In this document: positions 4,661 through 16,095 of the stretch, piece after piece
Numbering within the stretch: the stretch's first letter is position 1
Layout of the letters: every line of letters begins with the position of its first letter
NCBI GenBank assembly: GCA_964463155.1
Contig: CAYXAY010000016.1
Span: forward strand, 1-16,095
From: an uncultured archaeon
GTDB taxonomy: Archaea; Iainarchaeota; Iainarchaeia; Iainarchaeales; CSSED10-239
DNA length: 16,095 bases
Reading direction: 5' to 3'
Translations under genes and position numbers: made by a program
Notes under the pieces: generated by a model
The model's input: only the letters and a program-made list of their open reading frames with translations
What the model was told of the DNA's origin: nothing
The model's database searches: none

Positions 4661-4664
4661 GTGA
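4659..4664 (+). promoter_or_regulatory. Shine-Dalgarno-like AGGTGA upstream of the thyX ATG
   Basis: aggtga lies 5 nt upstream of ATG 4670. It overlaps the TAG stop of the preceding ORF and the GTG (4661) that the ORF track used as the start. Confidence 0.4.
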
Positions 4665-4669
4665 AAGAC

Positions 4670-6187
4670 ATGGAAGAATTTAAACGAAAAATAAAACTAC
4701 TTGATCATATTGTCTATGAAGTTGTGCAAAAAGAAAATATCCCTTGTTCAATTTCTACAGAGAACTTTGCTGAAGCTCATGCAAGGACCGTTGCTCGTCT
4801 TAGCCAAAGTGCAAAATCTTTTGAGGAGATTGTTTGCGAAACATTAAGTGAAGAAGGCTTTGACAAAGAAAAGATAGGGAATTTCCATAAGAGTATAACA
4901 CTGGGAGTTGCTCATCATTCAATTGAACAGCACGGTAATGTAACGCTTTGTTTTGAAAATACAAGCATGATTGCAACAAACAAATATTGTGAAAACAAAA
5001 GGCTGGCAGCATATCTAGAAAAATCAACAAGATATCAAGACTTTTCAAAACCTTGTTTTATTGTCCCTAAAGAGCTTGACGATAAACCAGAGCTAAAAAA
5101 AGAATATATTGAAACAATGAATTACTTGTTTGAAGTTTATGCCAATATTCTCCCAAAAATTATTGAAGAAATAAAAAAAGAATTTGCAAAAAAAGGCATG
5201 GTCGTTGACGAGAAATCAATAAAAAAGAAAGCATTTGATTCTGCAAGATATGCCCTGCCATCAAGTGCTTATACCAACTTTGCAATGACAACTAATTCGC
5301 AAGTGTTTAGATCTTTGGTTGTTGATCTTTTAACAAACAATATTATTGAGTTTAACGAGATTGGAGAAGAAATGCAAAGAGAGCTTGAAAAGGTTTATCC
5401 TACACTTCTTGAAAAAACTGCTTGTATATTTAGTAAGAAGAGAGAAAATATCAAATTTACTTCAAACACAATTACTCCATTGACCTACAATAGTCAAAAA
5501 AAGATACAAATAAATGATTCTATTTTTGAAAACATTGAAAGCCAAGTAAAAATTATTGGACACACAGACAATGCAGAAAAACTAATTGCTTACAATTATC
5601 TTTTGGATAATGGTTTTTCTGTAGAATATAAAGATAAAGAAGTTTATCTTAATTCCAAAAAATTAGCAAACGAAGAAATAAGCAAATATATTAAACAAGC
5701 ATTTAATTATGATTGCACAGATTATCGATCACACAGAGCATTAGAACTTGCAAATTATAATTTTGAAGGAATTATTGACTTTGGTGCATGGAGGGACCTT
5801 CACAGAAACAGAATGTTAACTTGGATTAGCAGTTTTATATCCCCCGAATATGGTTTTGCTATTCCAATATTCTTGCCAAAAGATGCAGAAGAGGAATATC
5901 TTTCTGGTCTTAAAAAGGCATATGCATTCTGGGTAAAACTTCTAGAAAATGGATTTAATAAAGAATTTTGTCAGTATGTGTGTCCACTTGGCACAAATGC
6001 AAAAATTCTTTATACAATAAATGCAAGAGAAATGGATCACGTCTCAAAGACAAGAACAACAGCGCATGCACATTTCTCATATCGTGTCTTTGTGCATTAC
6101 TGTGTTGAAGAAATAAAGAAAATCAATCCAGATATTGGAAAAAATCTAAAAGATTATTATGATGACCCAATATCTTCAATACATTAA
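4670..6187 (+). CDS. thyX: FAD-dependent thymidylate synthase ThyX-like, long tandem-domain form
   Basis: There are two ThyX-like halves. Half 1 has HHSIEQHGNVTLCFE...NKRLAAYLEKSTRY (nt 4994-5035) and ARYALPSSAYTNFAMTTN. Half 2 has FGAWRDLHRNRMLTW (RNR at 5804-5812) and CPLGTNAKILYTINAREMDHVSKTRTTAHAHFSYR. Motif order in both matches T. maritima ThyX (RHRxxSxxExSxRY ... ARxxLP ... NARS ... R..HAQxEIR). An alternative GTG start lies at 4661. Confidence 0.75.
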   Translation: MEEFKRKIKLLDHIVYEVVQKENIPCSISTENFAEAHARTVARLSQSAKSFEEIVCETLSEEGFDKEKIGNFHKSITLGVAHHSIEQHGNVTLCFENTSMIATNKYCENKRLAAYLEKSTRYQDFSKPCFIVPKELDDKPELKKEYIETMNYLFEVYANILPKIIEEIKKEFAKKGMVVDEKSIKKKAFDSARYALPSSAYTNFAMTTNSQVFRSLVVDLLTNNIIEFNEIGEEMQRELEKVYPTLLEKTACIFSKKRENIKFTSNTITPLTYNSQKKIQINDSIFENIESQVKIIGHTDNAEKLIAYNYLLDNGFSVEYKDKEVYLNSKKLANEEISKYIKQAFNYDCTDYRSHRALELANYNFEGIIDFGAWRDLHRNRMLTWISSFISPEYGFAIPIFLPKDAEEEYLSGLKKAYAFWVKLLENGFNKEFCQYVCPLGTNAKILYTINAREMDHVSKTRTTAHAHFSYRVFVHYCVEEIKKINPDIGKNLKDYYDDPISSIH

Positions 6188-6199
6188 AACGGTGAAAAA

Positions 6200-6343
6200 A
6201 TGATAATTCCTGAGAAAAAAGAACTTATATGTATAGACCCAAACTCTCAAAACCAGGAAAAATGCAAAGAACTTTCTGAGTTAACAATAGACAACAATGG
6301 AACCATAGAATACTTAGAAAAGAAAGTAGATAATTTACTATAG
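6200..6343 (+). CDS. hypothetical small protein (47 aa), absent from the ORF track
   Basis: ATG at 6200 is preceded by ggtga (6191-6195) with a 4-nt spacer. Product is MIIPEKKELICIDPNSQNQEKCKELSELTIDNNGTIEYLEKKVDNLL, with stop TAG at 6341-6343. It is in the same frame as the N-terminal part of the dCMP deaminase. Confidence 0.3.
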   Translation: MIIPEKKELICIDPNSQNQEKCKELSELTIDNNGTIEYLEKKVDNLL

Positions 6344-6376
6344 AAGTTACAAGTAGAGAATATATAAAAAACATAT

Positions 6377-6888
6377 TTGGATGAATACCTTATAAAAATA
6401 GTAGGCGTTGTTTCAAAAAGAGAAAGTTGTCTTTTTGTTTGTTTTGTGGCAGTAATTGTTAAAGATAGCATTATTCAATCAACAGGTTATGTTGGAACAC
6501 CAAGAGAAGCAAAAGACTGTTTTGAAAAAGACAATTGCCTTAGAAGAAAATTAAACACCCTTTCAAGCATACAATATGAACTTTGCATAAGCGTTCATGC
6601 AGAGCAAAATGCAATAATCAATGCTGCAAGAGATAGCACATCAACACTTGGGGGAATCCATTATATTTAGACAAGAAAACCTATCAAGACATAGTTAAAC
6701 CGATTGATTATTTTCCTTGCTTTATCTGTAAAAAACGGATAATCAACTCAGGGATATCAAAAGTTGTTTGTACAACTGCAGACAGAAGTTATAAATCACA
6801 CAATGTTTTAGATTTGGTAGATTATTGTAAAAAGAACTACATCATAGATTATAAAGAAAAATATGGGACAAATTATAAAATAAAATAA
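6377..6888 (+). pseudogene. dCMP (deoxycytidylate) deaminase interrupted by a 1-nt frameshift in a G5 run
   Basis: The N-terminal part (6377-6670) carries DEYLIKIV, VAVIVKD, STGYVGTP and HAEQNAI (HAE at 6596-6604), then ends LGGIHYI-stop. The frame one base back continues NPLYL...PCFICKKRIINSGISKVV (PCxxC at 6715-6729) to TAA at 6886-6888. The switch point is ggggg at 6650-6654. A sixth G, or a -1 slip, gives LGGNPLYL. Only a TTG start is available (6377). Confidence 0.8.
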
Positions 6889-7036
6889 TAATGGCAGAAA
6901 TAATGGAATTTAATAAGAATATATTATAAATTAAATAGATTAGAATATGAACACTTAAAGAAATATGGTCTTAAAAAAATGAATAGAAGAGAATTAGACA
7001 AAGTATTTAAAAAGTAACCTTAAGAATAGATTTATA

Positions 7037-7442: not shown

Positions 7443-8151
7443 TTCTGGAAAACAACTAAAAGATGTCCTTTTGGAACTTAAAAATAAAGGCGACTCTAAT
7501 AGAGCAAAATAATAGAAAAGATATCTTTTAAGCCTACGCAAGTTCTATGGAATTATAGGTAAAGAGCAATACGACGCAGTAAAGAAATACTATCTTCTAA
7601 ATAAAAATATTTCCATGGAACAATTAATGCCGATATTTCAAGAACTTTGGCAAAGTAAATGGCATACAAAAAAATCCTTTGCTGTTTATCTTGCAACTTA
7701 TTATACAGAATTAGTTGAAGAAAAAGAACTGATTTTCTTCAAGAAATGGTTAGACCAATGCACAGGTTGGGATCACACTGACGGCATTTCTGGTTTTGTG
7801 ATTGCAAAAATGGTTGGTAGAAAGCCAAAACTTAAAAGAATCATTAATTCATGGACAAAATAAAAACACATGTGGACAAAAATAGCGAGCCTTAGCAGTT
7901 ATATAAAATCAGTAAGAAAAGACAAAAGGGATTTAGAGGATGCCTTTAATAACAGAAAACCATTAATGCACGAAAAAGAATTCTCCATAAGAAAGGTAAT
8001 TGGCTGGATTCTAAGGGAAGCTTCAAAAAAACCCGAAAAATAAGTTATAGGTTTTATTTAAGAAAATAAAACAAAGCATTTAAATCTTTCAAAAAGAGAC
8101 GCAATAAGAAACATTTTAAGTAAAAAAGAAATATCTAAATATTTAATTTAA
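7438..8151 (+). pseudogene. AlkD-family (PF08713-like, HEAT-repeat) DNA alkylation-repair glycosylase gene with five in-frame stops and no start codon
   Basis: A single frame translates collinearly with B. cereus AlkD. RAK**KRYLLSLRKFYGI matches KAEPMARYMKNHFLFLGI. TGWDHTDGIS matches SWWDSVDSIV. SWTK*KHMW matches KWIASDNIW. KEFSIRKVIGWILREASKK matches KEFFIQKAIGWVLREYAKT. LSKRDAIRNI matches LSKREAIKHI. Stops are TAA 7510, TAG 7513, TAA 7861, TAA 8041 and TAA 8059, with terminal TAA at 8149-8151. No frameshift is needed. The track's 7615..7863 ORF is one fragment of this gene. Confidence 0.8.
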
Positions 8152-8997: not shown

Positions 8998-10485
8998 TTA
9001 TTTTTTTACAAGTTTTGCTTTTTTAATCAAAAGATTGCCAGTAAAGTCGTTTTGCATAATCTTTTTGCAATCTGTGATTTCTATTCTGTGCTTGAAAGTT
9101 GGTGCATCAAGAACCAAAGTCTCATATTCTCCGCCTTCTCCAGCAATATTTATCTTGTATTTTTGGTTTAGCTTCTTTAGCTCTTCTAGGTTTTTTCTAT
9201 CAATTGCTTTTCCGAGCCATTTCTCAGACAAGCCAAAGGCTGCAATCTTACAAATAATAAACTTAAATTTATTATCTAGAAGGATTTTAATCTCGTTTTC
9301 TTCTTTCATGTGCCACAACTGAGCAATCAATTTCAGGCCAAGGTCATTACAAACCTTTTCAATTCTTTGCTTTTGATAATTGCTATAGAGCGCGCCAGTA
9401 ACAATCTCTGTCAAATTGAACTTTTCCTTTGCAAAAGCTATTGCGTTCTTTAAATCTACAAGCTCTTTTTCCTTTTCTCCTTTTGTTTTCGCTACAAGAA
9501 GAGGGATGTCAAGAGCAATTGCTTGAAGTTTTAAGAAATTTAATTCGGGTGTTTGAAACATATAAGAGTCAATGTTTTCTGGAATCATTGAGATTAGACA
9601 AGAAATCTCTCTTCCGCTTTTCTTTGCAAGGAACAAAGAAAGGTTAGAGTCTTTGCCACCAGAATAAAGAGCGCCAATCTTTTCTTTTCTAAGAGATGAA
9701 AGAAAATCGCTTTTTGTTTTAAATTTCTTTTCTTTAGAAAGCTTTTCAATAACTCTGTCGCTATTGCTGCCATATTGGCAAGCAAGCTTTTTTCTATCCG
9801 CCAGTTCTTTTGAAAGCCCAAGGGATTTAGCAATTTCCCTAACAACGATTTTGTTTTGCTTTGAAGAAATCAAAAGCTTTGCTGGAAGTGTCAAAGAGTA
9901 ATCGATGACTTTTTTATCAAGATAAGGGCATTTAATGAGCAGTCCAAAGCTATTTGCTATTGCCTCATCCCTGTCAAGATTATCCTTTTGAAGATTATTA
10001 AGACATTTCTTTGTTTCTGCTTTTTGGTTTTTCGCTGTAAACCGACTATAGCCTGCAAACAATTCATCAGAGCCCAACCCTGAAAAGATAACATCTATCT
10101 TTTTTGCTTTTGCATTTTTGCAAGATAAATAACCAGGAATTGCAACCCCAACAGAAACAGGATTTATGGAATTTATAATTTCAATAACTTCAGGAAAAAG
10201 TTTAGAAACTTCTTTTCGGTCTGCCGAAATTACTTCAAGCTTTAAATCAAGTTCCATTGCTGCCTTTTTTGCAAAAGCCAAGTCTTTTGCCTTTGTGGAA
10301 TCTTTGACATAAGCAAAGAAACAAGAAAATTTCACCTTTTGCCTTTTCAAGAGAATAGCAAGAAGACAAGAATCAACACCTCCACTGAAAAGCAGAGCAT
10401 AATTTTTGCTTTTATCTTTTGTAAGGTTTTTGATTGAATTTTCAAGAAGCTTTAGAAGTTTTTTTTGTTCTTTTAATAAAGCCAT
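8998..10485 (-). CDS. fusion protein: asparagine-synthetase-like PP-loop adenylation domain (no glutaminase domain) plus Dph6/MJ0570-type diphthine-ammonia ligase domain
   Basis: The N-terminal half has LLFSGGVDSCLLA (SGGVDS at 10369-10386), SGLGSDELFAGY, DRDEAIANSFGLLIKCPYLD and ACQYGS, as in the AsnB C-terminal synthetase domain. The C-terminal half has GALYSGGKDSN (SGGKDS at 9646-9663), DSYMFQ, IVTGALYSNYQKQRIEKVC, LWH and GEGGEYETLVLDAP, as in MJ0570/Dph6. I prefer ATG 10485 (MALLKEQKK) over the track's GTG 10518, whose extra 11 residues are MFIFLFFFNLY. Confidence 0.8.
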   Translation of the reverse strand: MALLKEQKKLLKLLENSIKNLTKDKSKNYALLFSGGVDSCLLAILLKRQKVKFSCFFAYVKDSTKAKDLAFAKKAAMELDLKLEVISADRKEVSKLFPEVIEIINSINPVSVGVAIPGYLSCKNAKAKKIDVIFSGLGSDELFAGYSRFTAKNQKAETKKCLNNLQKDNLDRDEAIANSFGLLIKCPYLDKKVIDYSLTLPAKLLISSKQNKIVVREIAKSLGLSKELADRKKLACQYGSNSDRVIEKLSKEKKFKTKSDFLSSLRKEKIGALYSGGKDSNLSLFLAKKSGREISCLISMIPENIDSYMFQTPELNFLKLQAIALDIPLLVAKTKGEKEKELVDLKNAIAFAKEKFNLTEIVTGALYSNYQKQRIEKVCNDLGLKLIAQLWHMKEENEIKILLDNKFKFIICKIAAFGLSEKWLGKAIDRKNLEELKKLNQKYKINIAGEGGEYETLVLDAPTFKHRIEITDCKKIMQNDFTGNLLIKKAKLVKK

Positions 10486-10571
10486 ATACAGATTAAAAAA
10501 GAAAAGGAATATAAACACTTTTGTTGTTTAGTTTTATTTAGTAAGATAATAAAAAAGAGGTTAGGATAATT

Positions 10572-11340: not shown

Positions 11341-11627
11341 AATCTTGCCTTTAGAATACTCCTGGCTTTTTAGTTATATAATATTTTATAACTGATATTT
11401 TTTAATATCCTTTTTAGACAAGCAAATACGGATTTTATAAAGACAAGGATTATTTTTTGTTTTTTTCTGACAATTAAATGTGTTTGTGTATTTTTCTAAC
11501 CGCAAATTAGAAAAGTTGTACTAAAATGTTAACAAAAGATGTGCCATTTTGATTCCATAATTGTGCAAATTGTTCAAATTTAATGATATATTTAAATATG
11601 TTTCGCAACCAAATATTATTGATATGT

Positions 11628-12881
11628 ATGTTAGAAATCTATAAAATCCAAAACCAGCACTGGGAAAACCAACTATATGATATTCCAATTAAAAGAACAA
11701 TTCTTGAAACTTTAAAAAAAGAACTAATTAATCATAGATTAATACTTTCTATTGAAGGGCCCAGAAGAGTTGGTAAATCTGTATTACTCAAACAATTAAT
11801 AAACTATTTAATACAAAACAATATAAAACCAAAAAATATATTTTATTTTTCTTTTGATAAATTAGATAAAAAGATATTAGATACAATAAAAGATTATGAA
11901 GAATTATCTGGAATATCACTAAGAGACGAAAAAACATATTTGTTTTTTGATGAAATACAAAAGATTAAAGATTGGCAATCAGACATTAAAATAATTTATG
12001 ATAATTATCCAAATACAAAGATAATTGTAAGTGGATCAACATTAAGAACAAGCAAAAAAGAAAGCTTAGCCGGAAGAATAATTGATTTTTTTATTAAACC
12101 GCTATCTTTTGAAGAATATTTAATATTTTCTGGCAAAGAAAAGTTATTAGATTCAGACATAGATTCTGTTTTTGAAAAAGAGTATAATGCCTATCTATTT
12201 AGGCAATATCCTGATATTGTTTTAAACAGAGACATTGATTCAAAGCAATACATTTCATTAATTTTACAAAAAATAATATTTGAAGACTCTGAAAAATATA
12301 TAGCAAATGTAGACAAAGACATTTTATATAAAATATGTATGATTATTTTTAGAGACCCCGGGCAAATTATAAATTATTCTGATTTATCAAAAGACTTAGG
12401 GGTAAAAAGAAGCATAATCTCTAAATATATTGGTTTTCTTATTAATTCAGGAATTATTAAAAAAGTATATAATTATTCAAACAACACAAGAAAGTTAGAG
12501 ATCAAATCAAAAAAGTTTTATCCATATTGTACGACTTTAACTAGAGCTATAACAGATAATCCAGATATGTCAAAGATTATAGAAACAGATGTTTGTTTTC
12601 AATTAGATGTTAAATATTTTTTTAATAACAAAAGTAAAGAAGAACTTGATTTTTTACTTATTGACCCCTTAACTTCTAAGAAGATAGGTGTAGAAGTAAA
12701 ATATAGAAATTTAATTACAAACAAAGATGTAAGTGCCTTTAGGTCCGTTATAGTAAAAAAGCTTAACTTAGACAAAATGATAATCATAGTAAAAGCAGAA
12801 TCAAAGTTAGACTTTAACACAAAAGAGATCAGACCAATAAGATACTTTGTTCTCTTCAAGAACAAAGAACAATTTCTTTAA
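11628..12881 (+). CDS. AAA ATPase (COG1373 / AAA_14 plus DUF4143 type) with PD-(D/E)xK-like C-terminal region
   Basis: Walker A is GPRRVGKS (11757-11780) and Walker B is LFFDEIQ. The C-terminus has ELDFLLID...IGVEVKYRN, the D...E-x-K nuclease-like pattern typical of this family. ATG 11628 (MLEIYKIQNQHWEN) is more plausible than the track's 11583. Confidence 0.85.
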   Translation: MLEIYKIQNQHWENQLYDIPIKRTILETLKKELINHRLILSIEGPRRVGKSVLLKQLINYLIQNNIKPKNIFYFSFDKLDKKILDTIKDYEELSGISLRDEKTYLFFDEIQKIKDWQSDIKIIYDNYPNTKIIVSGSTLRTSKKESLAGRIIDFFIKPLSFEEYLIFSGKEKLLDSDIDSVFEKEYNAYLFRQYPDIVLNRDIDSKQYISLILQKIIFEDSEKYIANVDKDILYKICMIIFRDPGQIINYSDLSKDLGVKRSIISKYIGFLINSGIIKKVYNYSNNTRKLEIKSKKFYPYCTTLTRAITDNPDMSKIIETDVCFQLDVKYFFNNKSKEELDFLLIDPLTSKKIGVEVKYRNLITNKDVSAFRSVIVKKLNLDKMIIIVKAESKLDFNTKEIRPIRYFVLFKNKEQFL

Positions 12882-12973: not shown

Positions 12974-13966
12974 TTAGAACATATCAGTCTTCCAAAGAAC
13001 ATATATTCCAAGAGCCGAAAGAACGGAAATTATGCCCATAACAATAATAAAAGCATATTTGTGATAGTCAAAAGGCAAATCAACATTCATACCGTAAATG
13101 CTTGCAATAAGTGTTGGTATTGCAATAACAATAGTAACTGATGTCAAAAGCTTTAAGGTCTTGTTAAGGTTGTTAGATATTACAGAATTAAAAAGACCTG
13201 TAGCATCTGTTATTATGTTTTTATAGATTGCAGTAACAATAATTGCTTGCTTGTTCTCATCAATTACATCATCAATAACCTCTTTATCGTCTTCAGAATT
13301 AACAAAGTCTTTATTTCTTGCTATTTTTTCAAGAAGTATTTGATCGCTTTTCAAAGAAGTATTAAAATACACAAGTGATTTCTTCAAGTCAAGAAGATCA
13401 GAAATCTCTTTGTTTCTTTGAATGCTTTCAAATTTTTCTTCAATTGCTTTTATCTTTCTATCTATGTCTTTAAGATATCTGATATAAGTCTTTGAAGAAA
13501 CTAAAAGAAGATTTAGAAGAATCAAAGACCTCTTGTGTTTGAATTTTTTTGTTTTAAGAACATTTAGGTTTTCGTTTTCTCTAAAGCTTATTGTAATCAT
13601 ATAGTCCTTGTTAATCATAATTCCTAATGGTATAGTGATATACTCAACAGCAGACAGATATTTGCTTTCAGGGTCTGTTGTCTTAAGCTTGTGTGGAGTT
13701 CTTGTGATAATAAAGTACTCTTGTCTATATTTCTTCATGCAAGGTATCTCTTCCATGTCCTTTAAGGAATTGATATCAGCCTTAAAGTCCTGATAATCTA
13801 TTTCTTTAACCTTACACATCTTAGCAAGCAGTTTTATCTCATAGATATTTGGGTTAACTACATTTATCCATACCTCCTTTATAGGTTTCTTTAATTGTTG
13901 TAAGCCAGTTTCTGAGAATTTTAGAATTTCAATCATGGTGATTTTCTCCCCTTTATAAAAAAGCAT
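12974..13966 (-). CDS. corA: CorA-family magnesium/cobalt transporter
   Basis: The YGMN signature is present (GMN at 13085-13093 on the minus strand). It lies between two C-terminal TM helices, LLTSVTIVIAIPTLIASIYGMNV and YAFIIVMGIISVLSALGIYVLW. Length is 330 aa. An alternative start, ATG 13936 (MIEILKF), is preceded by gggaga. Confidence 0.9.
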   Translation of the reverse strand: MLFYKGEKITMIEILKFSETGLQQLKKPIKEVWINVVNPNIYEIKLLAKMCKVKEIDYQDFKADINSLKDMEEIPCMKKYRQEYFIITRTPHKLKTTDPESKYLSAVEYITIPLGIMINKDYMITISFRENENLNVLKTKKFKHKRSLILLNLLLVSSKTYIRYLKDIDRKIKAIEEKFESIQRNKEISDLLDLKKSLVYFNTSLKSDQILLEKIARNKDFVNSEDDKEVIDDVIDENKQAIIVTAIYKNIITDATGLFNSVISNNLNKTLKLLTSVTIVIAIPTLIASIYGMNVDLPFDYHKYAFIIVMGIISVLSALGIYVLWKTDMF

Positions 13967-14116
13967 GTTTTAAAAAGTAAGTTTTATAAATATATAATAT
14001 ATTATTAGATATAGGAATATGTTTATAAATGTTTAAGAACATAAATAATTTACGGAAATAATCTAAATTAACTAAAATAAGTTATAATTTTGTAAAAAAT
14101 AAAGGAAAGATAAGAA
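13967..14116. promoter_or_regulatory. divergent intergenic region with TATA-box-like elements
   Basis: This 150-nt AT-rich spacer separates the divergent corA and secreted-protein genes. It contains two tttataaat elements (about 13983 and 14022). TATA-like strings are expected by chance at this AT content. Confidence 0.3.
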
Positions 14117-16095
14117 ATGAACAAAAAAAATTTAATTTCAATTTTTATAATACTAATTTGTGTGCTTTTTATAAGTACAAGCGTTTTTGCATCTGCTGGA
14201 CAAAAAGGACAAAGACCAGAATATTGTACTATTCCGGAAATGACTGATTTAAAGATTATATCTGTTTCTGCAACTAAATATACTAGAGTCCAGAATGACA
14301 GTAATTGTGCAGTTGTAACAGTTATAACAAATGAATATAGTTACACTACTACTAATGAATTCGCTTTAGGCATTATAATTGTAGGAGGTGCAACAAATTC
14401 TAAAAGATCAGTCTATGGAAAAATTATGGAAAAAATATATGTAGATGGTCCGAATAATATAAAAGCGGCAGGTTGTTTTGATATAAATAATTACAGTAAT
14501 TTTGAGAATGGTAAATTGTGTTCTCCATCAATCAAAGAGAAATTAACTCATAGCATTCATTTTGAACATGGAGATCCATTTTGTAATACATCGAAATTTG
14601 ATACATATGTATTCAAACCATGGAAGATATATGCAGGGTTTCAGAATAATGCTTATATTTGTGGTAAGGGAAAAAATAAATCAGATAGTCGAAATTTGGG
14701 GACAGCTTCTGCTGTATTATGGAGTGTAAATAACAGTGTTTTTACAGACACTTATTTTTATAATTTAGATTATGCTTATGACGTTCCATTTCCAAATGCA
14801 GCACCGCCTGCAGCGACACAATCTACATCAATAGCAACAGCACCAACAGATTTAGAGTGTTCAAATAACTGTTCAGGATATGTAAAATCTACAACATATC
14901 CAACATTAACAATAGGTGGAGTAAGATATAATCCAGGATCTTTATGTTATAAATGTAATACTGATAAAACAATGGCTGAAAGATGTAATCCCAAAACTGG
15001 TGAAAAAAGCGGATTTATAGTGAATTTAAATAATTATCCAAATTTAAAAGCGGAAATTTGTCCAAATGTAGAACCAGATACTAAAGCAACAGTTATAAAT
15101 ATAGAAAATAACAGTAACATATCAGATATTAATTTTACAGAAGATAATAAAAATTGGTATCCCGTAACTAAAATTGATGATCCTGAAGCTTACATTTTAG
15201 GAAACAAAACACAAGATAAAAATTTAAGTATTAATTTAGATAGTTTTACGGATGGTAACATTTATGCGATAGTTTCTACAGCTAATAAAAACACAGAAAT
15301 AGAAAAGGAATTACAACAAATTTATAAAACAGGTGTTTTTGCTAATTATGTTAGGCAAACAGACGCAAATCCATTTAATATTAAAAACGGTGAGGATTTT
15401 ATTAAATTAAACTATTCTCTTAGTGGGCCAAAAAATATTAAAATAAATATTACACAAAACACAGTTGAAAATATAGTATTAATATTTATGCAACAATCTG
15501 GCGATAAAGTAAATTTGGCATATACTAATCTATATTTTTTAAATGATAAAAATCAATCACTTTTTTATTTTTGTATGATTAATAGAAATATTGTAAATTT
15601 CTATTGTAAGGGACACAATTGTAGTTTAAATGCCAGTTGTTTTAATTCAGGAAGATGGGATTTTAATTCACAAATCTTTGTCGTATTAGGCAGCAAAAAT
15701 GCAGAACAAGACCGCAAGGACCCGGAATTAGCGCAATCAATAACTTTAGAAAAAGGAAATGATGGTTGTTATACTTCAAATCCACAAACCTTAGCAAAAA
15801 TTAGACAAGAAGACGGAATTGGGATAACAAAACCACCATTTAATGAAAGAAGGACAATGGATAGTATTGTCTTACCAGCGTCAAAGGAGGGAACAGATGA
15901 TGATCCAAGTTTAACTGTTGCTCAAATAAGGAATATTTTTAATAGTACAAGCTTAAATATCCCACAAAGAGTAAAAGATGCCGCGCCATCATTTTATAAT
16001 TTGGGTTTATTATATGACATAGACCCGGCATATATTATTGCAATATTTAGAGCAGAAAAATCAATGTTTAATCAGAACGCCGGCACCGTATCCCA
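14117..16095 (+). CDS. large secreted Cys-rich protein with C-terminal SLT/lytic-transglycosylase-like motif, 3'-partial (runs off the window)
   Basis: I checked codon by codon and found no stop from ATG 14117 to nt 16095 (659 codons). The ORF track omits it because no stop lies within the window. The N-terminus MNKKNLISIFIILICVLFISTSVFA/SAGQ looks like a signal peptide. There are more than 20 Cys and a Pro/Ala/Thr linker (14786-14848). The visible end, YDIDPAYIIAIFRAEKSMFNQNA (16019-16081), resembles the SLT motif YGVDPALVLAVIRQESSFNPNA, with candidate catalytic Glu at 16055-16057. Confidence 0.8.
   Translation, partial: MNKKNLISIFIILICVLFISTSVFASAGQKGQRPEYCTIPEMTDLKIISVSATKYTRVQNDSNCAVVTVITNEYSYTTTNEFALGIIIVGGATNSKRSVYGKIMEKIYVDGPNNIKAAGCFDINNYSNFENGKLCSPSIKEKLTHSIHFEHGDPFCNTSKFDTYVFKPWKIYAGFQNNAYICGKGKNKSDSRNLGTASAVLWSVNNSVFTDTYFYNLDYAYDVPFPNAAPPAATQSTSIATAPTDLECSNNCSGYVKSTTYPTLTIGGVRYNPGSLCYKCNTDKTMAERCNPKTGEKSGFIVNLNNYPNLKAEICPNVEPDTKATVINIENNSNISDINFTEDNKNWYPVTKIDDPEAYILGNKTQDKNLSINLDSFTDGNIYAIVSTANKNTEIEKELQQIYKTGVFANYVRQTDANPFNIKNGEDFIKLNYSLSGPKNIKINITQNTVENIVLIFMQQSGDKVNLAYTNLYFLNDKNQSLFYFCMINRNIVNFYCKGHNCSLNASCFNSGRWDFNSQIFVVLGSKNAEQDRKDPELAQSITLEKGNDGCYTSNPQTLAKIRQEDGIGITKPPFNERRTMDSIVLPASKEGTDDDPSLTVAQIRNIFNSTSLNIPQRVKDAAPSFYNLGLLYDIDPAYIIAIFRAEKSMFNQNAGTVS

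Follow-up and report, generated by a model that had tools for sequence, protein, structure and literature searches.

A predicted GH73-type wall hydrolase encoded at a cassette-polymorphic corA-glmS locus of an uncultured archaeon

What use would an archaeon, presumably one without murein, have for a secreted protein that ends in a lysozyme-like domain? This question is raised by a gene at the right-hand end of a stretch of 16,095 nt from an uncultured archaeon (positions 1 to 16,095 of contig CAYXAY010000016.1), which was analysed over its full length and is called the window in the following. The gene lies next to corA and is cut off by the end of the window (Table 1). Its product is predicted to end in a diverged module of glycoside hydrolase family 73 (GH73), and in close relatives both the N-terminal part and the catalytic module of this protein have been replaced independently at the same chromosomal site. 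On balance we favour a secreted wall hydrolase that varies by exchange of cassettes and is directed against the peptidoglycan of bacteria.

A preliminary description of this DNA had noticed a long open reading frame (ORF) without a stop before the window end, and this is indeed what we find. The frame remains open over 659 codons, with two further nucleotides; it is absent from the mechanical ORF list because it runs past the end of the window. At 29% guanine plus cytosine (GC) a random codon is a stop in about 8% of cases, which by simple arithmetic gives a chance of approximately 1e-24 for an open frame of 659 codons. Furthermore, 11 homologs of the protein were found, several of which are positional orthologs between corA and glmS. 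These orthologs have 724–925 aa (863 aa in P0001, 741 aa in P0005, 905 aa in P0003 and 724 aa in P0011). The gene is real but truncated and codes for a secreted protein. Since the last 116 residues within the window correspond to the first 116 of the approximately 204 residues of a catalytic module, here called type A, about 88 residues are missing, an estimate derived from orthologs whose modules of this type show ~70% identity. Exact 40-mers, scanned against GTDB genomes and JGI metagenomes, gave no match by which the contig could be extended, nor did exact-protein look-ups of CorA (with two alternative starts) and of a 318-aa neighbour find a match.

The C-terminal module had been described as carrying the signature of the SLT (goose-lysozyme-like) family, beginning just before the window end. 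A murein-hydrolase-type domain of the lysozyme superfamily is supported by our analysis, both by homology and by fold; the assignment to SLT and the position of its start are not. The module begins at aa 544; the part inside the window consists of a small subdomain on the N-terminal side (LEKGxDGCY...DDDPSLT), after which a GH73-like lysozyme fold sets in. No match to PF01464 (SLT) was obtained for the window protein, for ten complete homologs (E<=1) or for isolated type A modules (E<=10). The hidden Markov model (HMM) of PF01832, the family of the GH73 enzymes, likewise gave no direct match at its gathering score of 30.2 bits for the window protein, the complete homologs or the isolated modules. 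The connection to PF01832 becomes visible through profiles and intermediate relatives. Searched against 5.8 billion sequences, the type A profile retrieves three PF01832 proteins at E ~1e-3, and hhalign aligns type A with one PF01832 protein, P0013, at 97.3% probability and E 2e-11; the Glu of the window motif AEKS is placed on the Glu of a HET motif, and the helix TLEQGIEA is common to both. When 1.84 billion representatives were searched exhaustively with the profile, only 11 proteins scored below 1e-10. Among the 17 distant type A relatives that were scanned (P0018–P0034), 14 match PF01832. Two of them, P0018 (23.7 bits) and P0020 (29.8 bits), bridge the type A modules to the PF01832 proteins, and farther relatives reach up to 54.9 bits. 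A widened type A profile reaches the structure 8yxk at E 8e-10 and, by sequence, also Atl, LytB, Auto and FlgJ. The TAL-effector rows that appeared in the PDB search with this profile contained no passing stretch and were disregarded as repeat noise.

The fold was compared on the module of an ortholog (P0001, residues 660–863), the window holding 57% of the module. Its AlphaFold2 (AF2) model reached a predicted local distance difference test score (pLDDT) of 89.6 and a predicted template modelling score (pTM) of 0.89. Ranks 1–12 of the Foldseek search against PDB are all occupied by GH73 enzymes (LytB, AtlE, Auto, Acp and Ecd09610; probability 0.80–1.00), and the structural neighbours further include phage tail lysins and the glycoside-hydrolase effector 4kt3 of a type VI secretion system. 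In BFVD the best matches are phage glucosaminidases and tail lysins. The SLT/goose-lysozyme family was rejected: g-type lysozymes and SltB/Mlt appear only from rank 19 on, with a probability of at most 0.25, and the type A orthologs read AE[KR]S...NDISGV...CRCGG...YPTLEQGIEA, without a G-x-x-Q motif. With regard to the active site the preliminary description was right in pointing to the Glu of AEKS (aa 646–649). An Asp-Pro pair and this residue, Glu647, are invariant in an alignment of 21 sequences made up of type A modules and PF01832 relatives; Glu647 aligns with the HET Glu of P0013 and of 8yxk and is located at the end of a helix that follows a 'DP..a.A' segment. After the catalytic helix the ortholog model predicts a short beta pair, where no acidic column is conserved. 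At the aromatic position of the YA.D region type A has Trp and the relatives have Tyr. Both places are located past the end of the window. Judged by sequence profiles and model together, the C-terminal module is a predicted, diverged GH73-type module with lysozyme fold, and very probably this catalytic domain came originally from bacteria or phages. The N-terminal subdomain of type A (LEKGxDGCY...IVxP, ~70 aa) also occurs alone, at residues 688–753 at the C-terminus of P0021, a 758-aa DUF5018 protein (E 4e-9); it may be an independent small module.

Compared segment by segment, the window protein is closest to a different relative in each part. The N-domain is 60–62% identical only to P0009 and P0010, which carry an alternative C-terminal module (type B), against 23–31% identity to the other members, and it has no match in the class of P0002, P0007 and P0008. 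The Cys-rich insert has 55–59% identity to P0001, P0002, P0006, P0007 and P0008 (nearest are P0006 and P0001 with 59%) and is absent from P0009–P0011. The middle domain is closest to P0003 (70%) and only 30% identical to P0009/P0010; the type A module shows ~70% identity to all type A proteins and is absent from P0006–P0010. For the flanking CorA, diphthamide synthase and SHMT, identity to the relatives is 73–85% (~80% for CorA in comparison to those beside the orthologs in loci L001, L005 and L007). Among close strains the boundaries become sharp. The last 431 aa are the same in P0002 and P0003 (100% identity), whose N-terminal halves are unrelated, and P0002 shares 99–100% identity with P0007/P0008 over ~620 aa, after which the sequences split into type A and type B. 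In the loci L011 (P0003, 157-kb contig) and L005 (P0007, 28-kb contig) the flanks have 96–98% nucleotide identity. The alignment of the left flank stops at about the start codon, and within the gene only a core of 597 nt, the middle domain, aligns (99%); a 5' part of 1.4 kb and a 3' module of 0.7 kb are unalignable. Both architectures recur in independent samples. Thus, the N-terminal part and the catalytic module were shown to be replaced independently at a fixed chromosomal site. The corA-gene-glmS site is a two-cassette polymorphic locus, whose catalytic module can be GH73-like or of the ESGC...GxAQI type; NlpC/P60 may be joined to one of the two or encoded next to it.

A conserved scaffold with alternative, non-homologous C-terminal modules in close relatives, as found here, is the mark of a polymorphic-toxin-like locus. 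No cognate immunity gene was found downstream in the syntenic loci; the gene that follows is in every case glmS or a paralog with NlpC/P60. The lack of an immunity gene fits a producer without murein, because a murein-free archaeon needs no immunity protein. The glmS gene, which codes for glucosamine-6-phosphate synthase, always follows the hydrolase gene(s) on the same strand, after 32–48 nt (L001 12638–14467, L004 12259–14091, L005 12826–14655, L011 12767–14596, L014 2896–4725). Judged by this arrangement, the hydrolase might be co-transcribed with glmS or connected with the metabolism of amino sugars.

All family members have in common a signal peptide and the middle domain of ~200 aa, which is present even in short NlpC/P60 paralogs and defines the family. 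It is preceded by the N-domain and by Cys-rich inserts that may be lacking, and a P/T-rich linker connects it on the downstream side with either the type A module or the type B module of ~280 aa, the latter of which is not present in the window. Type B carries the motif AAESGC...G[VI][AG]Q[IV]. Nothing significant was found for it in a PDB profile search, Pfam, PHROGs, NCBIfam and two single-sequence PDB searches; its best match was to Phage_lysozyme2 with E 0.028, in one of four members, and hhalign of type A against type B gave 0.3% probability. Its apparent likeness to SLT enzymes is a motif-level impression only. P0010 carries NlpC/P60 in addition. In L007, L008 and L012 a second, tandem gene codes for signal peptide, middle domain and NlpC/P60 (PF00877 in the tandem paralog with 31.8 bits against a cut-off of 23, the Cys/His region being matched), and L013 has two tandem type B genes. 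A more distant relative, P0019, combines a type-A-like module with an L,D-transpeptidase domain of the YkuD family. Since the same carrier domain is joined to a GH73-like, an NlpC/P60 and a lysozyme-motif module, and a relative has YkuD, peptidoglycan emerges as the common theme. P0019 and its neighbour (L015 2232–11346) are tandem giants of 1315 and 1544 aa with YkuD domains, one of them ending in the type-A-like GH73 module, and adjoin a regulator of the TrmB/DUF7343 type. This pair may be a second, unrelated archaeal architecture that uses the same diverged glucosaminidase clade.

The layout of the window protein is given in Table 1. Its sole hydrophobic stretch is the N-terminal signal-peptide-like segment MNKKNLISIFIILICVLFISTSVFA, followed by SAG; the cleavage site was placed by the -3/-1 rule. 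This segment is 92% identical to those of P0001, P0004 and P0007, and the orthologs end without any membrane anchor. We have little doubt about the identity of the catalytic domain and about the export of the protein. Of its 18 Cys residues, six cluster at aa 248–315 and four, invariant in the family, at aa 486–508 (positions 486, 497, 502 and 508). There are 17 N-x-S/T sequons, 10 of them at aa 319–520; this corresponds to 2.6 per 100 aa, compared to 0–1.1 in ten neighbouring genes. Shuffled sequences contain on average 10.6 +/- 2.8 sequons, against the 17 observed (p ~0.02). Judged by sequence, the protein is probably N-glycosylated and disulfide-bonded. The AF2 model of the whole protein is poor (pLDDT 59.5), with 55–70 in the N-domain and 78–88 in the middle domain. 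Foldseek found for the N-terminal and middle domains generic beta-sandwich matches of the Ig/FnIII kind only (alpha-2-macroglobulin, fibronectin), from which no function was drawn, and the middle domain has no identity in Pfam or PDB. In the orthologs the linker after the middle domain is P/T/Q-rich and of variable length. Hence the signal peptide, the two Cys-rich regions, the PAT-rich linker and the sequon-rich, unrecognisable middle region, all of which had been read from the sequence before, are confirmed. The N-terminal part, previously suggested to be a novel module for targeting or adhesion, is not recognised by Pfam or PDB, and a role in targeting appears plausible.

Table 1. Features at the right-hand end of the window (position 1 is the first letter of the 16,095-nt stretch; aa numbers refer to the window protein).
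Feature	Coordinates	Strand	Remarks
CorA Mg2+ transporter gene, conserved divergent left flank	12974..13966	-	PF01544, E 1e-41; position conserved in orthologous loci; true start probably Met11, at 13936
AT-rich intergenic region, presumed promoter and ribosome-binding region	13967..14116	+	read from the sequence; purine-rich AGGAAAG 7 nt before ATG
Truncated gene of the predicted secreted modular wall hydrolase	14117..16095	+	659 codons + 2 nt; ~88 codons beyond window end
Sec-type signal peptide, aa 1-25	14117..14191	+	predicted cleavage after VFA, before S; no lipobox; KK n-region and h-region
Hypervariable N-domain, aa 28-225	14198..14791	+	beta-rich; 6 Cys; motif YFYNLDYAYDVP at its end
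Pro/Ala/Thr-rich linker, aa 226-246	14792..14854	+	read from the sequence; pLDDT <50
Cys-rich insert module, optional cassette, aa 247-318	14855..15070	+	6 Cys
Conserved middle domain, aa 319-520	15071..15676	+	beta-sandwich and two long helices; 4 invariant Cys; 10 sequons
Low-complexity linker, aa 521-543	15677..15745	+	no family match; pLDDT <50
Type A catalytic module (predicted), first 116 of ~204 residues, from aa 544	15746..16093	+	66-71% identical to eight relatives
GAA codon of Glu647, predicted general acid	16055..16057	+	invariant alignment column

That the contig is archaeal, as had been assumed, is substantiated by its gene content. The neighbours in the window include a D-aminoacyl-tRNA deacylase of the DTD2 type (PF04414) and an asparagine-synthase/diphthamide-synthase fusion, besides SHMT, ThyX and CorA; diphthamide synthesis and DTD2 are archaeal and eukaryotic traits. 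Orthologous loci with the same gene order are found on contigs of 28–207 kb from independent samples. The ortholog contigs of 123–207 kb bear the GenBank label 'archaeon' and serve as GTDB representatives; two GTDB representatives with the family are GenBank records named 'MAG TPA_asm: archaeon' (MAG, metagenome-assembled genome), and the ortholog HOW29360.1 is listed as 'hypothetical protein [archaeon]'. The GC content is even, ~28–29%, over the hydrolase gene and its flanks, and no relative of the hydrolase was found among the 2.9 million viral contigs of IMG/VR. One syntenic contig (L004) carries an aEF-2-type gene together with Dxr, and a bacterial-type methylerythritol phosphate (MEP) pathway distinguishes 52 Woesearchaeota that form a clade (PMC8204110). 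It is therefore plausible that the lineage belongs to DPANN and is Woesearchaeota-like. So far, the family is confined to a very narrow clade.

How could such a protein work? After Sec export it would probably become N-glycosylated and form disulfide bonds. The variable N-domain might then recognise the surface of the target, and the middle domain would provide the function common to all members, possibly retention on the surface of the producer or binding of a constant feature of the wall. The GH73-like module, held on a flexible linker, would cut GlcNAc-beta-1,4-MurNAc bonds (GlcNAc, N-acetylglucosamine; MurNAc, N-acetylmuramic acid) of bacterial peptidoglycan with Glu647 as the general acid, and the NlpC/P60 paralogs would cut the peptide stems. 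Murein we regard as a rather probable substrate. Wall cutting outside the cell may serve attachment to bacteria, their penetration or feeding on them. At the level of the gene, the middle domain and the flanks could offer the homologous segments for recombination. One may speculate further that the archaeon is an episymbiont whose host range is set by recombination at corA-gene-glmS. A constant scaffold domain would there display swapped modules for recognition and for breaching the wall (GH73-like, ESGC-type, NlpC/P60), and their combination would decide which partner wall a strain can open, that of bacterial murein or possibly the pseudomurein of methanogens; this we put forward as a tentative and rather doubtful extension. 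An equally tentative analogy would link it to the swapping of tail lysins and receptor-binding proteins in phages and to the polymorphic toxins of bacteria.

Several points weigh against a hydrolase of bacterial walls. The window protein, the complete orthologs and the isolated module have no Pfam, NCBIfam or PDB sequence match on their own. Membership in GH73 is transitive and structural because no such direct match exists, and the Foldseek matches to GH73 have a modest E value (2e-3) and template modelling scores of 0.42–0.61. We could not identify a second catalytic carboxylate in the type A alignment. The second half of the catalytic module is located outside the window, so that its intactness in this genome is predicted from the orthologs, and recognised peptidoglycan-binding domains (LysM, SH3, PG_binding) are absent from the window protein. 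The lineage below 'archaeon' is derived solely from Dxr/MEP and the style of the genome. Finally, two of the four module combinations (P0002 and P0006) come from contigs of ~3 kb, which might be assembly chimeras. The conclusion that modules are swapped is independent of P0002 and P0006.

Other explanations must be weighed against the same evidence. If the modules were directed at the wall of an archaeal host, for instance the GlcNAc-containing pseudomurein of Methanobacteriales or another archaeal glycan envelope, the divergence of type A beyond the reach of PF01832, in a tiny clade (of the 1.84 billion representatives, 11 score below 1e-10), would fit an altered specificity. The nearest outgroup, P0019, is probably archaeal as well, NlpC/P60 domains are papain-like cysteine peptidases, as are the pseudomurein endoisopeptidases, and the known hosts of DPANN are archaea and its cultivated members episymbionts of other archaea. 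However, the canonical set of murein-active domains is just what is found here, with GH73, the SLT-like motif, NlpC/P60 and YkuD, the closest structures are murein glucosaminidases of Firmicutes and phages, and pseudomurein has beta-1,3 linkages and resists lysozyme-type enzymes. An archaeal wall is, in our view, an improbable target. The invariable position directly upstream of glmS, on the same strand and with the short gap given above, would rather suggest a housekeeping autolysin or remodelling enzyme for a GlcNAc-containing polymer of the archaeon's own envelope, and so would the housekeeping neighbourhood, which is not a mobile element, and the lack of relatives in viral contigs. We consider this quite unlikely: flanks of ~97% identity that enclose unrelated N-domains and different catalytic chemistries are unexpected for a fixed substrate of the own cell, and glmS is also needed for N-glycans, hence the adjacency is perhaps incidental. 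Moreover, murein-like walls are not known from archaea outside the Methanobacteriales and Methanopyrales.

It is conceivable, too, that the lysozyme fold has become inactive and binds glycans of a partner wall, the N-domain and the middle domain forming the stalk of an adhesin. The sequence E-[KR]-S in place of the usual E-[ST]-G, the Trp for Tyr in 'YA..D' and a second carboxylate that could not be identified point in this direction, and attachment is also among the roles proposed by Castelle et al. Yet neither the family nor its PF01832 relatives show any variation in the Glu, the DP motif and the TLEQGIEA helix, alternative modules such as NlpC/P60, with its matched Cys/His region, look catalytically competent, and a swap of different chemistries suits enzymes better than binders; a non-catalytic adhesin is thus very unlikely. 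As the closest structural matches are enzymes of Firmicutes and phages, one might finally suspect a bacterial, chimeric or viral contig with an ordinary autolysin or phage endolysin. This is hardly credible in view of the archaeal-type neighbours (DTD2, the diphthamide-synthase fusion, CorA), the synteny on long contigs from independent samples, the even GC content and the negative search of viral contigs, and a signal peptide in front of more than 700 aa is unlike typical endolysins. The explanation which we prefer, a wall hydrolase aimed at bacterial peptidoglycan, can be compared with several known systems.

With the GH73 enzymes of PF01832 (LytB of S. pneumoniae, AtlE/Atl of S. aureus, Auto of Listeria, Acp of C. 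perfringens, Ecd09610 of a C. difficile phage, and FlgJ) the family shares a lysozyme-like fold, a catalytic Glu at the same helix end and the terminal position of the catalytic domain in a modular protein. The helices FY.LG..Y.IDP...ES and Y.s.EeGIE.fY are common to both. In contrast to these enzymes, type A stays below detection by the PF01832 HMM, reads E-[KR]-S and not E-[ST]-G, has an extra N-terminal subdomain of ~75 aa and a CRCGG loop; the window protein is archaeal and has no wall-binding repeats of the LysM, SH3, choline-binding or GW kind.

The preliminary description had suggested that the archaeal murein enzyme could act on a bacterial partner or prey. This suggestion points in the right direction, but it is already in print, and less of it is new than the description implied. 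Woesearchaeota and Pacearchaeota have large extracellular proteins of the murein-hydrolase kind, for which binding or degradation of bacterial walls was proposed (Castelle et al. 2021, PMC8204110), and GH23 genes in Woesearchaeota metagenome-assembled genomes from Lake A were linked to a 'vampiristic' lifestyle (Vigneron et al. 2022, PMC9723730). These DPANN murein transglycosylases (fam00969, PMC8204110; AR20, Castelle 2015; GH23, PMC9723730) are likewise secreted, large, for the most part unrecognisable and encoded by archaea with small genomes. They have a wall-glycan-cleaving domain of the lysozyme superfamily, and the same role on bacterial walls was proposed. They are, however, SLT/GH23 proteins of up to 3000 aa, in contrast to a GH73-like family of 470–1120 aa. 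The likeness of the window protein, which has no SLT match, to fam00969 is functional and architectural only. The window family has a conserved middle domain of its own and a cassette polymorphism at the level of strains, which are not described in those papers.

Modular peptidoglycan hydrolases were reported from ~5% of archaeal genomes, prominently in Nanoarchaeota, and two haloarchaeal enzymes, one of them with PF01832, killed a bacterium (Strock et al. 2025, PMC12352652). Enzymes such as 'Danwoldo' of Halogranum (PF01832 and PG_binding_1) and 'Woldo' (M23) are also archaeal, secreted and domain-shuffled, with an arms-race-like patchiness. They differ in that they are exported by Tat and enriched on plasmids, whereas the window family has Sec export and a fixed, syntenic place in the chromosome. 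That survey asked for at least two Pfam domains, one catalytic and one for binding to the wall, a combination that neither the window protein nor its type A orthologs possess. NlpC/P60 is above threshold only in P0010 and the short paralogs. Since neither of the two kinds of Pfam domain is above threshold in the window family, a survey of this type would miss it. A search of the open-access literature gave no paper that treats GH73 together with Woesearchaeota. A Pfam-invisible GH73-like module with its carrier domain, the restriction to a very narrow clade and the polymorphism of two cassettes at a housekeeping locus with conserved synteny are not described in PMC8204110, PMC9723730 and PMC12352652.

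Polymorphic toxins, modular bacteriocins (of the colicin/pyocin type and zoocin-like lysins), phage tail lysins and receptor-binding proteins share with the window family a constant scaffold with exchangeable modules for recognition and as 'warhead'. Toxin-like are the sharp recombination boundaries beside segments of 99–100% identity in close strains. Unlike polymorphic toxins and bacteriocins, the locus is without an immunity gene and has no secretion-system or phage genes nearby, and no silent cassettes were seen in its 20-kb flanks.

So far, the evidence for attack on bacteria by DPANN archaea, or attachment to them, consists of a few annotated SLT/GH23 genes and one experimental haloarchaeal case. 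As this family illustrates, Pfam-based surveys under-count archaeal wall hydrolases; enzyme and carrier are here annotated as 'hypothetical protein'. The system is compact, with a module of ~200 aa and a defined Glu, and the natural module swaps in near-identical genomes would lend themselves to a mapping of target specificity. If the substrate were pseudomurein, this would be, to our knowledge, the first glycosidase for that polymer.

Some further observations concern the remainder of the window and the syntenic loci. At 11583–12881 (+), in the stretch of lowest GC content (24–26%), lies an AAA_14/DUF4143 ATPase gene without counterpart in L001, L004, L005 and L007; it looks like a lineage-specific insertion between a 229-aa gene and corA. 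A ThyX of 508 aa with two Thy1 stretches follows SHMT at 4661–6187 (+), where the relatives have ThyA and DHFR (L001 1327–2676, L005 1–707, L011 1–372), an apparent non-orthologous replacement of thymidylate synthase among close relatives. At 6200–6900 an ORF similar to dCMP deaminase (HAE motif) ends after 97 aa, compared to a 361-aa AAA_17/18-deaminase fusion in the relatives, and two short adjacent ORFs at 7615–8043 resemble the ends of the DNA_alkylation gene of L005; these fragmented genes could be pseudogenes or assembly errors. The fusion of an asparagine-synthase-like PP-loop domain with a Dph6-like diphthamide synthase (~500 aa) is conserved at 8998–10518 (-) and in all syntenic loci and adjoins the gene of a Zn-dependent phospholipase C. 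Farther downstream, at a distance of three to six genes from the locus, a conserved protein of 660–750 aa is encoded (L007 15806–18061, L001 16053–18068, L011 17637–19625), which in L007 contains ten 'Decapeptide repeat' units (PF25296, E 3e-128).

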